The position numbers were made by a program, and so were the translations under genes. From Escherichia phage EC128, in sequence record ON210139.1: DNA of 64,000 nucleotides. One strand, 5' to 3'. How positions within the stretch are numbered: position 1 is the first letter of the stretch; every line of letters begins with the position of its first letter. Positions 35,806 through 51,254 of the stretch are shown piece by piece. The notes beneath the pieces were generated by a model that saw only the letters and a program-made list of their open reading frames with translations, searched no databases and was not told where the DNA came from.

Positions 35806-35835
35806 GTTTACAAGTCCCTCGTGTTGTGTTACAGT
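35806..35835 (+). promoter_or_regulatory. early promoter for alc; part of a 54-bp promoter and leader repeat
   Basis: GTTTAC, 18-bp spacer, TACAGT; near-identical copy at 49909. Confidence 0.5.
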
Positions 35836-35866
35836 AGTCTTACTGACATAACATGAGGACTTTATG

Positions 35867-43557: not shown

Positions 43558-43845
43558 ATGTTTATGACTACTTATTTTGATACCCGCAAAAATTTCTGTG
43601 AAGTTGTTTTCTCAAAGGCACCTAAAGACCTTCCTGCACATTTGCAACCTACTAGCGAATCGATTAAAAACTACGTTGATGTGGTTTGTCCTTTAGAGTT
43701 CCGTACTGTAAATGGGCGTGATACTTTAGCTATCACTAAACTCAATCGCGAAATTGACATTGACCCTTCAATTGCGCGCGAAATTAATATCTCTGATATT
43801 GGCGGCGGTAATGTTAAATCGCACGGTTTTCAGATGAGGTTCTAA
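43558..43845 (+). CDS. hypothetical protein (95 aa)
   Basis: ORF with SD GAGGAAAATATT after a UUCG hairpin. Confidence 0.5.
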   Translation: MFMTTYFDTRKNFCEVVFSKAPKDLPAHLQPTSESIKNYVDVVCPLEFRTVNGRDTLAITKLNREIDIDPSIAREINISDIGGGNVKSHGFQMRF

Positions 43846-44042
43846 TGAAATTCTTTTTAGGTCAAACTGTTGAATTAAAGGGAGTTGGTATACCTGGATT
43901 AATTTCTAAGGTTCTACCTCCATTTAAATGGAGTGGTATTCAAATAAAAGAGGCTTATATTGTTTCCTGGGTAGATGGAAATGAAGACCTTCGTATGGGT
44001 GATGAATTATCTCCTATCTACGGATTAAAGGAATTAGTATGA
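43845..44042 (+). CDS. hypothetical protein (65 aa)
   Basis: ATGA-coupled ORF. Confidence 0.45.
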   Translation: MKFFLGQTVELKGVGIPGLISKVLPPFKWSGIQIKEAYIVSWVDGNEDLRMGDELSPIYGLKELV

Positions 44043-45532: not shown

Positions 45533-45801
45533 TGTTTGTTGTTCACACTATTTATGAAAATGAAGGTAATACTACACGTGATTACGGTCACGTAAATCAA
45601 TTTTTTAGATGCAATCCAGAATTCCGAGCTCAAAAAGACGAACGAATTTTTAAAAAATGCGTAGAGCAAGGTTTCATTTATATCAAGCACTGGATGCAAG
45701 GAAATAAAGTTAGAACCACATATCATAAGTCTTTGACTGAGCTTAATGATGAATTGATTTATAATAGAGCTGTAAACCAAACTCTGAAGGATGAACAATG
45801 A
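45532..45801 (+). CDS. hypothetical protein (89 aa)
   Basis: ORF coupled between the upstream ORF and gene 30. Confidence 0.5.
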   Translation: MFVVHTIYENEGNTTRDYGHVNQFFRCNPEFRAQKDERIFKKCVEQGFIYIKHWMQGNKVRTTYHKSLTELNDELIYNRAVNQTLKDEQ

Positions 45802-47261
45802 TTCTTAAAATTCTGAACGAAATAGCATCTATTGGTTCAACTAAGCAGAAGCAAGCAATTCTTGAAAAGAATAAAGATAATGAATTGCTTAAACGAGTAT
45901 ATCGTCTGACTTATTCTCGTGGGCTGCAGTATTATATCAAGAAATGGCCTAAACCTGGTATTGCTACCCAGAGTTTTGGAATGTTGACTCTTACCGATAT
46001 GCTTGACTTCATTGAATTCACATTAGCTACTCGGAAATTGACTGGAAATGCAGCAATTGAGGAATTAACTGGATATATCACCGATGGTAAAAAAGATGAT
46101 GTTGAAGTTTTGCGTCGAGTGATGATGCGAGACCTTGAATGTGGTGCTTCAGTATCTATTGCAAACAAAGTTTGGCCAGGTTTAATTCCTGAACAACCTC
46201 AAATGCTGGCAAGTTCTTATGATGAAAAAGGCATTAATAAGAATATCAAATTTCCAGCCTTTGCCCAGTTAAAAGCTGATGGGGCTCGGTGCTTTGCCGA
46301 AGTCAGAGGTGATGAATTAGATGATGTTCGTCTTTTATCACGAGCCGGTAATGAATATCTAGGATTAGATCTTCTTAAGGAAGAATTAATCAAAATGACC
46401 GCTGAAGCCCGCCAGATTCATCCAGAAGGCGTGTTAATTGATGGCGAATTGGTATACCATGAGCAAGTTAAAAAGGAGCCAGAAGGCCTAGATTTTCTTT
46501 TTGATGCTTATCCTGAAAACAGTAAAGCCAAAGAATTCGCCGAAGTAGCTGAATCACGTACTACTTCTAATGGAATCGCTAATAAATCTTTAAAGGGAAC
46601 CATTTCTGAAAAAGAAGCTCAATGCATGAAGTTTCAGGTCTGGGATTATGTTCCATTGGTAGAAATATACGGTCTTCCTGCATTTCGTTTGAAATATGAT
46701 GTACGTTTTTCTAAACTAGAACAAATGACATCAGGCTATGATAAAGTAATTTTAATTGAAAACCAGGTAGTAAATAACCTAGATGAAGCTAAGGTAATTT
46801 ATAAAAAGTATATTGACCAAGGTCTTGAAGGTATTATTCTCAAAAATATCGATGGATTATGGGAAAATGCTCGTTCAAAAAATCTCTATAAATTTAAAGA
46901 AGTAATTGATGTTGATTTAAAAATTGTAGGAATTTATCCTCACCGTAAAGACCCTACTAAAGCGGGTGGATTTATTCTTGAGTCAGAGTGTGGAAAAATT
47001 AAGGTAAATGCTGGTTCAGGCTTAAAAGATAAAGCCGGTGTAAAATCACATGAACTTGACCGTACTCGCATTATGGAAAACCAAAATTATTATATTGGAA
47101 AAATTCTAGAGTGCGAATGCAACGGTTGGTTAAAATCTGATGGCCGCACTGATTACGTTAAATTATTTCTTCCGATTGCGATTCGTTTACGTGAAGATAA
47201 AACTAAAGCTAATACATTCGAGGATGTATTTGGTGATTTTCATGAGGTAACTGGTCTATGA
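45798..47261 (+). CDS. 30: ATP-dependent DNA ligase
   Basis: 487-aa ORF; adenylation motif around KADGAR; recognised as T4 DNA ligase. Confidence 0.95.
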   Translation: MILKILNEIASIGSTKQKQAILEKNKDNELLKRVYRLTYSRGLQYYIKKWPKPGIATQSFGMLTLTDMLDFIEFTLATRKLTGNAAIEELTGYITDGKKDDVEVLRRVMMRDLECGASVSIANKVWPGLIPEQPQMLASSYDEKGINKNIKFPAFAQLKADGARCFAEVRGDELDDVRLLSRAGNEYLGLDLLKEELIKMTAEARQIHPEGVLIDGELVYHEQVKKEPEGLDFLFDAYPENSKAKEFAEVAESRTTSNGIANKSLKGTISEKEAQCMKFQVWDYVPLVEIYGLPAFRLKYDVRFSKLEQMTSGYDKVILIENQVVNNLDEAKVIYKKYIDQGLEGIILKNIDGLWENARSKNLYKFKEVIDVDLKIVGIYPHRKDPTKAGGFILESECGKIKVNAGSGLKDKAGVKSHELDRTRIMENQNYYIGKILECECNGWLKSDGRTDYVKLFLPIAIRLREDKTKANTFEDVFGDFHEVTGL

Positions 47262-47446
47262 AAGCTTACTTAGAAACAATTGTCATTGCTCAAAAAGAAG
47301 GTGGAGATGTTTCTACTTCTGTATCACAAGTCATTCTCGAATTTGTAGATGCATACGCTTATAATAAATTTACAGAAACATTTGATGCCTATGAAAAAGG
47401 ACCAAAGTTTGAAATATATCGTACTCTCTTACCACTAGATTACTAA
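47258..47446 (+). CDS. hypothetical protein (62 aa)
   Basis: ATGA-coupled ORF after the ligase gene. Confidence 0.45.
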   Translation: MKAYLETIVIAQKEGGDVSTSVSQVILEFVDAYAYNKFTETFDAYEKGPKFEIYRTLLPLDY

Positions 47447-47495: not shown

Positions 47496-49547
47496 ATGAT
47501 GGAACTAATTACAGAATTATTTGACGAAGATACTACTCTTCCGATTACAAACTTAAATCCAAAGAAGAAAATACCACAAATTTTTTCAGTTCATGTTGAT
47601 GATGCAATTGAACAACCAGGCTTTCGTTTATGTACCTATACATCTGGAGGTGATACTAATCGTGATTTAAAGATGGGCGATAAAATGATGCATATTGTTC
47701 CTTTTACATTAACCGCTAAAGGTTCAATTGCTAAATTGAAAGGTCTTGGTCCAAGCCCAATTAATTATATCAATTCGGTTTTTACTGTTGCAATGCAAAC
47801 AATGCGTCAGTATAAAATTGATGCCTGTATGCTCCGTATTCTTAAGTCTAAAACTGCTGGTCAAGCTCGACAAATTCAAGTTATTGCTGATAGACTTATC
47901 CGTAGTCGTTCAGGTGGCAGATACGTCCTTCTTAAGGAACTCTGGGATTATGATAAAAAGTATGCATATATTCTTATACATCGCAAAAATGTATCACTAG
48001 AAGACATTCAAGGGGTTCCGGAAATTAGTACCGAGCTCTTTACTAAAGTTGAATCGAAGGTCGGTGATGTTTATATCAATAAAGATACTGGAGCTCAAGT
48101 AACTAAAAATGAGGCAATTGCAGCATCTATTGCACAAGAAAATGATAAACGTTCTGATCAAGCTGTAATCGTTAAAGTTAAAATTTCCCGTAGAGCAATT
48201 GCACAAAGTCAGTCGTTGGAATCTTCTAGATTTGAAACACCGATGTTTCAAAAATTTGAGGCTTCAGCGGCAGAATTAAATAAACCAGCGGACGCTCCTT
48301 TAATTTCTGATTCTAATGAATTAACGGTAATTTCTACTTCAGGATTTGCACTAGAGAATGCTCTTAGCAGTGTTACAGCTGGGATGGCATTCAGAGAAGC
48401 TTCTATAATTCCTGAAGATAAAGAATCCATTATTAATGCAGAAATAAAAAATAAAGCTTTAGAAAAATTACGAAAAGAATCTATTACTTCAATAAAAACT
48501 TTAGAAACTATTGCTTCTATCGTCGATGATACTTTAGAAAAATATAAAGGTGCTTGGTTTGAAAGAAATATTAACAGACATTCGCATTTAAACCAAGATG
48601 CTGCAAATGAGTTAGTACAAAATTCTTGGAATGCAATAAAAACAAAGATTATTCGAAGAGAATTACGTGGATATGCTCTTACCGCTGGATGGTCATTACA
48701 TCCTATAGTCGAAAATAAAGATTCATCTAAATACACACCAGCACAAAAACGCGGAATTCGTGAATACGTAGGTTCAGGATATGTAGACATAAATAATGCT
48801 CTTTTGGGATTATATAATCCAGATGAGCGTACAAGTATTTTAACAGCACCTGAAATAGAACAAGCCATTGATAATTTAGATTCAGCCTTTAAAAATGGTG
48901 AACGATTACCAAAAGGTATTACTTTGTATCGTTCACAACGAATGTTACCTTCAATATACGAAGCAATGGTAAAAAATCGAGTTTTTTATTTTAGAAACTT
49001 TGTGTCAACATCATTATATCCAAATATTTTTGGTACTTGGATGACTGATTCATCTGTGGGTGTTTTACCAGACGAAAAGCGTCTAAGTGTTTCTATTGAT
49101 AAAACTGATGAAGGACTAGTAAATTCTAGCGATAATTTAGTTGGAATTGGATGGGTTATTACTGGGGCTGATAAGGTTAATGTTGTTTTACCCGGTGGAA
49201 GTTTAGCGCCTTCAAATGAAATGGAAGTCATTTTGCCACGTGGATTAATGGTCAAAGTTAATAAAATAACCGATGCATCTTACAACGATGGAACAGTTAG
49301 AACTAACAACAAGCTTATTCAAGCTGAAGTTATGACCACAGAAGAACTCACCGAATCGGTAATCTATGACGGAGACCATTTAATGGAAACTGGTGAATTG
49401 GTTACAATGACAGGTGATATAGAAGACAGAGTTGACTTTGCATCATTTGTTTCATCAAATGTTAAACAGAAAGTAGAATCATCTCTTGGAATTATTGCGT
49501 CTTGCATAGATATTGCAAACATGCCTTACAAGTTCGTTCAAGGATAA
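47496..49547 (+). CDS. alt: Alt ADP-ribosyltransferase (packaged; modifies host RNA polymerase alpha)
   Basis: 683-aa ORF (probable start at the second ATG, MELITELFDED); recognised as T4 Alt. Confidence 0.9.
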   Translation: MMELITELFDEDTTLPITNLNPKKKIPQIFSVHVDDAIEQPGFRLCTYTSGGDTNRDLKMGDKMMHIVPFTLTAKGSIAKLKGLGPSPINYINSVFTVAMQTMRQYKIDACMLRILKSKTAGQARQIQVIADRLIRSRSGGRYVLLKELWDYDKKYAYILIHRKNVSLEDIQGVPEISTELFTKVESKVGDVYINKDTGAQVTKNEAIAASIAQENDKRSDQAVIVKVKISRRAIAQSQSLESSRFETPMFQKFEASAAELNKPADAPLISDSNELTVISTSGFALENALSSVTAGMAFREASIIPEDKESIINAEIKNKALEKLRKESITSIKTLETIASIVDDTLEKYKGAWFERNINRHSHLNQDAANELVQNSWNAIKTKIIRRELRGYALTAGWSLHPIVENKDSSKYTPAQKRGIREYVGSGYVDINNALLGLYNPDERTSILTAPEIEQAIDNLDSAFKNGERLPKGITLYRSQRMLPSIYEAMVKNRVFYFRNFVSTSLYPNIFGTWMTDSSVGVLPDEKRLSVSIDKTDEGLVNSSDNLVGIGWVITGADKVNVVLPGGSLAPSNEMEVILPRGLMVKVNKITDASYNDGTVRTNNKLIQAEVMTTEELTESVIYDGDHLMETGELVTMTGDIEDRVDFASFVSSNVKQKVESSLGIIASCIDIANMPYKFVQG

Positions 49548-49550
49548 ATC

Positions 49551-49940
49551 ATGGAACTTATTACATAATTATTTGACGGCGCTTCGGCGCCGGTTGTTAA
49601 CTTAAATCCTAAGCATAAAATACCACAAATTTTTGCTATTCAAGCCGGCGAAGAAAGCGTGCTTCCTGGATTTAGATTTTGTACATACACCTCTGGCGGT
49701 GATACGAATAAAAACGTTAAGCCGGGCGATAAAATGATGCATATCGTAATGATAGGTGTTAATGAGAAATTATCACTGGTTAAGCTTAGAAACTTGGGTG
49801 GAAATCCAATTGGCGTCATTAATGCTGTTTTTGATACTGCTCTTCAAACAATGAAGCAGTATAAAATTGACGCATGCCTATTCCGCGTACTAAAAAGTTC
49901 AAAATGTAGTTTACAAGTCCCTCGTGTTGTGTTATAGTAG
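49551..49940 (+). pseudogene. truncated alt-paralogue remnant (homologous to the Alt N-terminal ~130 aa) with an in-frame TAA at codon 6
   Basis: MELIT*LFDGASAPVVNLNPKHKIPQIF...GFRFCTYTSGGDTNKN...QTMKQYKIDACLFRVLKS aligns with Alt residues 2-130; homology ends where the promoter repeat begins. Confidence 0.6.
49909..49938 (+). promoter_or_regulatory. early promoter; second copy of the 54-bp promoter and leader repeat
   Basis: GTTTACAAGTCCCTCGTGTTGTGTTATAGTAGTCTTACTGACATAACATGAGGA, one mismatch to 35806-35859. Confidence 0.5.
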
Positions 49941-49969
49941 TCTTACTGACATAACATGAGGAACACAAA

Positions 49970-50260
49970 ATGAAATCTTCTTTGCGCTTTTTAGGTCAAG
50001 AACTTGTAGTTGAAGGCGTTATTCCTGCTGATAATGCTTTTAACGAAGCAGTTTATGATGAATTTATCAAAATTTTCGGAACAGATAAAAAGTTTGGAAT
50101 TTTTCCTTCTGAAAATTTTTCAAAGCCAGAACAGACTGAAAGTATTTTTCAGGGTGTAGTAACAGGTAAATTTGAGTCAGAAGCTCCTGTAAAAATTGAA
50201 GTTTATATTGAAGACGGTTTAGTTGCTTCAGTTGCTGCTTTCATTTCATTCCGTAAATAA
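49970..50260 (+). CDS. hypothetical protein (96 aa)
   Basis: ORF with SD GAGGAACACAAA downstream of the repeated promoter. Confidence 0.55.
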   Translation: MKSSLRFLGQELVVEGVIPADNAFNEAVYDEFIKIFGTDKKFGIFPSENFSKPEQTESIFQGVVTGKFESEAPVKIEVYIEDGLVASVAAFISFRK

Positions 50261-50264
50261 AAAT

Positions 50265-50286
50265 ATGGGGACCGAAAGGTCCCCAT
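50265..50286. terminator. bidirectional terminator hairpin between convergent genes
   Basis: ATGGGGACC-GAAA-GGTCCCCAT between the + strand ORF end and the gene 54 end. Confidence 0.55.
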
Positions 50287-50288
50287 TG

Positions 50289-51254
50289 TTATATTGCTCC
50301 TAATATTTTACTTTGCGAATTGACAATTCCTGTCATGGTATTAATGTTTGAAATGCTTCCAGCAGTTCCCCCTAATCTACTGAGTCGTGAAAGCGAATTA
50401 GATAGTCCAGTAACGCCTCCGCTATTTCCGAGAACGCTTTGAATACCATTTATAGCAGCAGATTCAAGCCATTCAAGCGCAGCTTGCCTATCAACTGCTC
50501 CAGCCTGCATCACTCTATACGCAAAAGTAACGTCAAATGTAGTTATTTGGTTATCTCCATCATATGATAACTCAGGAGCGCTCACTGATATTGGAATGCA
50601 TCCGGTGAACATCACCGCAGTATGAGGCAATCCATTACGAGAATGAAGATTAACCTGAATATCCGCCTCGACATCTTGTGGCAAAGCACGTAATCCAGTT
50701 ACTGGGTCTTGAACGGAGTTAACCCAGTCTTGCATTGCACGATAGTTACAAGCTTCTGAATCCATTCTAAATGAAATAACCAAAGGGTCTAATTCTCTCC
50801 CAGTTATACGAATATTAGGAGAATTATAGTTCCAGTCAGTTTCATAGGATAATCTATTCTCTGGCATTTTTACAGAATATATCATCAATCCAGATGAGTT
50901 ATATGCCATGTTAAAGAAGTCAATTAAATATGTACCAACTGTAAATGAGCCTAATAAACTTTGAACTGTACGTTGACTCATGGCACCAATAAGATATTTA
51001 CTAACCCCTGATTTTCTTATCAGTTTTTGTGTGCCAGCAGTAATTAGCGTGGTAATTCCCTGATTAATATCACCTTGAGTCAATCCTAACCAATCTGAAT
51101 TTAGGCCCAAGTTATTATAAGAAAAGTTGCTAATTGAACTTATCAACGAAGAGCTTTTAGTTGATGGAGTTGTCGCAAAAACGCAGCTAAACATATTATT
51201 ACGTTGGAAATCTGCGTTTATTGCTTGATTATTAAATTCCTCTAAAGAATACAT
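50289..51254 (-). CDS. 54: gp54 baseplate tail-tube initiator
   Basis: 321-aa ORF in the 54-48-29-28-27-51 block. Confidence 0.85.
   Translation of the reverse strand: MYSLEEFNNQAINADFQRNNMFSCVFATTPSTKSSSLISSISNFSYNNLGLNSDWLGLTQGDINQGITTLITAGTQKLIRKSGVSKYLIGAMSQRTVQSLLGSFTVGTYLIDFFNMAYNSSGLMIYSVKMPENRLSYETDWNYNSPNIRITGRELDPLVISFRMDSEACNYRAMQDWVNSVQDPVTGLRALPQDVEADIQVNLHSRNGLPHTAVMFTGCIPISVSAPELSYDGDNQITTFDVTFAYRVMQAGAVDRQAALEWLESAAINGIQSVLGNSGGVTGLSNSLSRLSRLGGTAGSISNINTMTGIVNSQSKILGAI

Follow-up and report, generated by a model that had tools for sequence, protein, structure and literature searches.

The sequence at positions 49551-49909, directly downstream of alt, is most probably (at a probability of roughly 0.9) a non-functional pseudogene, the relic of a full-length tandem paralogue of alt, here called alt2, from which 1699 nt were lost between two copies of the short repeat CTAAAAAGT. 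The window analyzed was the whole 64,000-nt stretch of Escherichia phage EC128 (ON210139.1), a segment of a Tequatrovirus (T4-like) genome. The remnant is already known from T4 (alt.-1/alt.-2), from the annotation of phage fPS-2 and from the comparative literature; only mildly new are the exact mechanism of the deletion and the placing of T4 in the minority state. The finding in itself matters little. It does mean that the "old duplication of the first part of alt" of T4 is really a whole-gene paralogue minus 1.7 kb between 9-bp repeats, and that the short ORFs of the remnant should be annotated as a pseudogene and not as hypothetical proteins.

The locus reads on the plus strand from DNA ligase (45798-47261) through alt.1 (47258-47446), which is followed by a terminator, to alt (47499-49547). 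The alt gene is intact and encodes a 682-aa Alt ADP-ribosyltransferase, as identified by Pfam (PF03496, E 1.4e-34) and by the annotation of relatives. Behind the remnant lies a homologue of alt.-3 (49970-50260, plus strand), whose 96-aa product contains DUF5498 (Pfam PF17602, E 7e-64; T4 annotation). A bidirectional terminator hairpin was found by scanning at 50265-50286, between alt.-3 and the convergent gene 54, and relatives carry a terminator annotation there; beyond it lie two baseplate genes, 54 and 48, both convergent. Over 3.2 kb around the remnant 529 phage records matched the window, with 99.5-99.7% identity to PTE-Eco15, fPS-90 and fPS-2.

Pairwise alignment of the remnant with the 5' end of alt revealed a similarity far beyond chance. 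BLASTP matched the remnant to Alt residues 1-117 with 60% identity and 74% positives (E 1e-47), and the PHROG 802 profile was matched over profile positions 2-119 (E 8e-49). At the DNA level the identity to the corresponding stretches of alt was 90% for 49548-49578 and 73% for 49590-49747. The first-pass annotation had reported a homologue of the N-terminal ~130 residues of Alt; the homology stood, but only about 117 codons are covered. It had also placed the end of homology at 49909, whereas the Alt match stops at 49898 and 49899-49909 corresponds to the last 11 nt of alt2. The 5' 348 nt of alt2 (codons 1-116), equivalent to T4 alt.-1 plus alt.-2, were located at 49551-49898 on the plus strand by alt2 alignment, by the Alt match and by PHROG 802, 23015 and 15247. 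The frame-1 translation of 49551-49940 begins with MELIT, is interrupted by a stop, resumes with LFDGASAP and ends with LFRVLKSSKCSLQVPRVVL followed by two stops. The interruption is a TAA nonsense codon at codon 6 (49566-49568), where alt and all three intact alt2 alleles have GAA; the frame from the start codon is closed by it, and the description of a decayed alt-like remnant with a premature stop right after alt was confirmed. No Pfam family was found in the remnant, whereas alt and intact alt2 both match PF03496. The catalytic ADP-ribosyltransferase domain of alt2 falls within the deleted 1699 nt and is lacking in the remnant.

G10400, Jbel and T2 have in this place, between alt and alt.-3, an intact alt2 gene of 2058 nt that encodes 685 aa (protein accessions QBO63712, XDG31189 and AYD82791, respectively). 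Intact second genes span L001:2858-4915, L003:2852-4909 and L020:2844-4901. The alt2 protein is 41% identical to Alt over its full length, with a diverged middle region, and the PF03496 domain is present. The LYR, STS and ExE stretches of Alt, which are catalytic motifs in toxins of this family, are kept in the aligned alt2 protein. The product of alt2 is a second Alt-type enzyme, apparently with catalytic competence. Intact alt2 is usually annotated as "hypothetical protein" or under the same name as Alt, and in the T2 record as "alt.-1"; it appears to be unstudied because T4 has no intact copy. With alt2 of G10400 and Jbel the remnant shares an identity of about 97% (11 of 359 nt differ from G10400), and it is nearer to alt2 than to the neighboring alt, to which its DNA is 73-90% identical. 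Intact alt2 is co-linear with the remnant over 348 nt at its 5' end and 11 nt at its 3' end and has the same flanks, whereas nt 349-2047 are missing from the remnant, which contains a nonsense codon.

All three intact alleles of alt2 have two copies of CTAAAAAGT, one at nt 340 and one at nt 2039, with a distance of exactly 1699 nt between them; each of the 21 remnants has one. The single surviving copy of this 9-bp direct repeat marks the deletion junction of the window at 49890-49898 (plus strand). It is followed at 49899-49909 by the last 11 nt of alt2, TCAAAATGTAG, with the native stop TAG at 49907-49909. The junction of CTAAAAAGT and TCAAAATGTAG is identical in T4 and 20 other remnant loci. 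As read from these alignments, the remnant is alt2 minus one 1699-nt deletion between 9-bp direct repeats. The deletion, which presumably arose by replication slippage or illegitimate recombination at CTAAAAAGT, took codons 117 onward, including the entire catalytic domain, in the lineage of T4 and of this phage, and shifted the frame. Since 1699 is not divisible by three, the old alt2 stop no longer stands in frame. Besides the native promoter and leader of alt.-3, the deletion spared 348 nt at the 5' end of alt2 and, at the 3' end, 11 nt that include the old stop. Later decay converted GAA to TAA at codon 6 in the window; elsewhere it introduced several indels, among them a -1 frameshift within a run of A.

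The frequency of the two forms was estimated in phage records. The internal 1676 nt of alt2 were matched at a coverage of at least 80% in 402 records, including T2, RB27 and RB33, and a 140-nt junction-spanning query was fully covered in 90 records, including T4. The intact two-gene state is the majority (402 of 492, about four fifths of the Tequatrovirus records, where the counts are of records and some phages are entered twice, in GenBank and in RefSeq), and the deletion carried by T4 and the window is the minority. An exact-pattern scan of IMG/VR for the junction gave two loci, and the survey was therefore based on GenBank phage records.

The remnant resembles alt.-1/alt.-2 of T4 (T4p199/T4p198; PHROG 23015/15247) in its position between the alt stop and the alt.-3 promoter, in the 1699-nt junction, in the downstream promoter and leader and in a DNA identity of about 97%. 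In T4 codon 6 is GAA, and a -1 frameshift at nt 160 divides the relic into ORFs of 61 and 67 aa, whereas the window has TAA at codon 6, no frameshift at nt 160 and one 92-aa ORF with a GTG start. Judged by the features shared, the window remnant is an allelic variant of the T4 alt.-1/alt.-2 relic. The T4 RefSeq note attributes alt.-1 and alt.-2 jointly to an old duplication that covered the first part of alt, and mentions a stop codon and a new start within it. Nolan et al. 2006 (PMC1524935) listed T4 alt.-1 and alt.-2 as paralogous duplications of alt and described a full-length alt duplicate in phage 44RR. In Yersinia phage fPS-2 an identical 279-nt ORF, g192c, is annotated as [quoted passage not shown] and as a putative pseudogene. 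The phages fPS-2, SG1 and PTE-Eco15 belong to the allele class of the window (359 nt, TAA at codon 6, no frameshift). Between this class and the window the identity amounts to 100% for the 140-nt junction query and to 99.5% for 3.2 kb; the fPS-2 remnant differs from that of the window by one SNP.

Decay was studied by aligning the relic from 21 deleted loci with "virtually deleted" versions of the intact alleles (n=3). LH2 (L012), which is annotated with a T4-type ORF pair of 186 nt and 204 nt, was outside the 21. TAA at codon 6 was observed in 15 of the 21 remnant loci, and a 1-nt loss causing a -1 frameshift in the A-run at nt 160 was observed in 17. All 21 carried at least one of these early lesions, in three combinations: TAA only in the window, fPS-2, PTE-Eco15 and SG1 (full A-run, 359 nt), the frameshift only in T4 and five others, and both lesions in eleven loci. 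Further lesions were seen in single phages: FN has a 9-nt deletion, 235Ecol030PP lacks one more nucleotide and HY03 has an insertion of 7 nt. The 60 nt surrounding the TAA are identical in 42 phage records. All 15 TAA-bearing loci inspected were deleted forms, and none of the three intact alleles had the TAA. The ratio of synonymous to non-synonymous changes in the ancestral frame was 13:1 among the intact alleles and 12:14 among the remnant-only variants (Fisher p = 0.005), where remnant-only was judged against three intact alleles and a larger number of these may soften the 12:14. The difference between the two ratios indicates that substitutions in the remnants are unconstrained, which is the signature of a pseudogene.

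The SNPs at nt 220-318 divide the remnants, as those of the window type match the intact allele of Jbel and those of the T4 type match that of G10400. This split fits either recombination between remnant and intact copies or independent deletions. Recombination is needed either way, since the TAA is common to the window-type and the T4-type groups. It is a possibility that the 9-bp repeat is a recurrent deletion hotspot and that alt2 was lost more than once. An explanation for the secondary lesions could also be selection to silence a truncated Alt2 protein, rather than neutral decay, although this is unlikely. In T4 the prohead core contains gpAlt in about 40 copies, and the protein loses a small N-terminal peptide to the gp21 protease (PMC9958956). 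The N-terminal region of the remnant is homologous to gpAlt, including the MELIT(E)LFD start, and differs from it in that the 60% identity extends over 117 aa only, the catalytic domain is absent and the frame is closed at codon 6. The gp21 cut is presumably after the Glu of MELITE. If silencing had been selected, a free N-terminal fragment of Alt2 with MELITE and prohead-core targeting could have rivaled Alt for packaging. Shared ancestry and recombination account for the lesion pattern more simply than either silencing or a deletion hotspot.

A functional small protein encoded by the remnant was also considered, either the 92-aa ORF or a 67-aa Alt.-2-like protein starting from the ATG at 49734; such a product could for example correspond to a fragment of the N-terminal domain of Alt and either enter the prohead or modulate Alt. 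The ORF at 49659-49937 (plus strand) is, as first described, an internal in-frame piece. It has a GTG start and comprises alt2 codons 37-116 and a frameshifted tail into the promoter. This open frame, together with the 124 codons that are open after the TAA in the window allele, counts against the pseudogene reading, and so does the annotation of parts of the remnant as CDS in many GenBank records; homologous ORFs are CDS in T4 and many relatives and have PHROG families of their own. The region is furthermore transcribed in T4, where in the data shown in the supplement of a time-course omics study (PMC9697503) the RNA of alt.-1 and alt.-2 is classified as "middle" and that of alt.-3 as "early". 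However, the frame is broken differently among phages, and the substitutions follow no coding constraint. The tail SKCSLQVPRVVL of the remnant translation is out-of-frame read-through into the promoter, by which the C-terminal 12 residues of the 92-aa ORF are encoded, and the residual frame ends within the promoter at TAG TAG (49935-49940). A clear Shine-Dalgarno sequence is lacking, as no GGAG or GAGG was found before the GTG of 49659-49937 when the sequence was read directly. The MELITE-bearing N-terminal segment is upstream of the TAA or killed by it. In the same supplement the intensity of Alt.-1 (P39495) is zero in all of the sample columns shown for it, and Alt.-3 (P39493) is abundant from early times (PMC9697503); the rows covered include none for Alt.-2 (P39494), so that the zero applies to Alt.-1. 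A functional small protein is on this evidence quite improbable, and the ORF at 49659-49937 is most likely not a gene. On the minus strand, ORFs of 46-59 aa were considered and set aside; they overlap the relic and are antisense to early transcription.

A T4-type early promoter was assigned to 49909-49938 on the plus strand, with a GTTTAC(A) -35 element, a 17-nt spacer, a TG at 49930-49931 and a TATAGT -10 element at 49933-49938. It was assigned by a consensus scan, in which 49910-49938 matched the consensus at 10 of 12 positions and contained the TG. The G of the alt2 TAG stop is the first base of the GTTTAC element. Promoter and leader form a 54-nt repeat beginning at 49909, of which a second copy with 98% identity lies upstream of alc (35806-35859). 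In these points the first-pass annotation, which had an early promoter within a 54-bp repeat driving the next ORF (49970-50260), was upheld, and alt.-3 would depend on this promoter for its expression. Loci with intact alt2 and loci with the remnant do not differ in promoter, leader and start of alt.-3. Being in the same place behind the intact gene, the promoter is native and replaced nothing.

The same annotation had proposed that the remnant arose by partial duplication of the 5' region of alt, followed by truncation through acquisition of an early promoter. On this model only the 5' third of alt would have been copied, and a mobile early-promoter cassette would have inserted into the copy. 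The remnant indeed spans only the N-terminal part of Alt and is followed by a 54-nt promoter unit with a near-identical twin, and mobile promoter-terminator cassettes, PeSLs, have been described in T4-type phages (Arbiol et al. 2010; Comeau et al. 2014). Nevertheless, this origin is highly improbable. At this locus 402 records have a full-length paralogue, intact in G10400, Jbel and T2, which the remnant matches with 97% identity, whereas its similarity to alt is much lower. The remnant keeps the terminal 11 nt of this paralogue together with the stop, the breakpoint is the 9-bp repeat and the promoter is identically placed after intact alt2. The boundary of the indel is 11 nt upstream of the promoter, and no stem-loop precedes the latter. 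The 54-nt unit resembles a PeSL in being a conserved early promoter unit, repeated at 35806-35859 and 49909-49962, that adjoins an indel between close relatives. Unlike a PeSL, it has no terminator-like stem-loop 5' of the promoter, the alt2 stop of the intact locus overlaps its -35 element, the indel boundary is a 9-bp coding repeat 11 nt upstream of it, and the unit itself is unchanged in intact and deleted forms. Identity as a PeSL cassette was rejected in view of the missing upstream stem-loop and the deletion breakpoints outside the cassette.

A sequencing or assembly error behind the TAA or the truncation, with alt2 in reality intact, is hardly credible: repeats and paralogues can in principle collapse, but nothing specific speaks for it, the same junction is present in 90 independent records including the reference T4, and the same TAA context is present in 42 records from many laboratories and sequencing platforms.

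A deletion relic of alt2 would still be transcribed. A terminator scan found no terminator-like site in 49548-49909, so that the relic would be part of read-through transcripts of alt. It would be transcribed passively as a 3' trailer of the alt message, without giving rise to a functional product. The fold of the whole remnant RNA was only mildly better than that of shuffled sequences (z -2.2), and the signal came from two local hairpins. A perfect GC-rich UUCG hairpin, CGGCGC-UUCG-GCGCCG, is formed at codons 9-14 (49577-49592, plus strand; -12.8 kcal/mol, z -2.25). This hairpin is present in all three intact alt2 alleles and absent from alt, and has been inherited from alt2; in two remnant loci the 3' arm is altered by a single substitution. 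As no T-run follows it, the hairpin is no obvious terminator. An Rfam scan of 49300-50400 at E up to 1 resulted in three chance-level matches, none of them in the remnant, so that the scan gives no support to a known RNA element.

A stronger hairpin was predicted at 49917-49964 (plus strand; -23 kcal/mol, z -5.5), in read-through RNA only. The promoter spacer and the -10 region pair with the leader and with the Shine-Dalgarno sequence GAGGA of alt.-3 (49958-49962). RNA from the predicted start at about 49944 lacks the 5' arm of the hairpin and is unstructured (-2.2 kcal/mol). The twin cassette upstream of alc (35806-35861) also folds in read-through RNA (-25.7 kcal/mol, z -5.0). These predicted folds suggest that alt.-3 and alc may be translated only from transcripts of their own early promoters. 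T4 possesses a device by which translation is allowed only from promoter-proximal transcripts, and the read-through hairpin resembles it. A hairpin gating translation in this manner would explain why promoter and leader move as one conserved unit.

Some irregularities were observed in other phages and elsewhere in the window. In HY03 (KR269718, L021:1-2608) the annotation of alt is limited to a 3' part of 645 nt, and ORFs on the opposite strand are found in place of the upstream part of alt and the ligase side; the locus may be rearranged or misassembled. In the close relative G2540-3 (MK327944, L015:310-2416) alt is annotated as two CDS of 1731 nt and 327 nt, and the length of the locus exceeds that in the window by about 57 nt, which suggests that alt is also disrupted in this phage. 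Finally, a 65-aa ORF upstream of ligase (43845-44042, MKFFLGQTVELKGV...) is 71% identical over 34 nt to the start of alt.-3 (49970-50020, ..LRFLGQELVVEGV), a likeness that may reflect a distant paralogue or chance.
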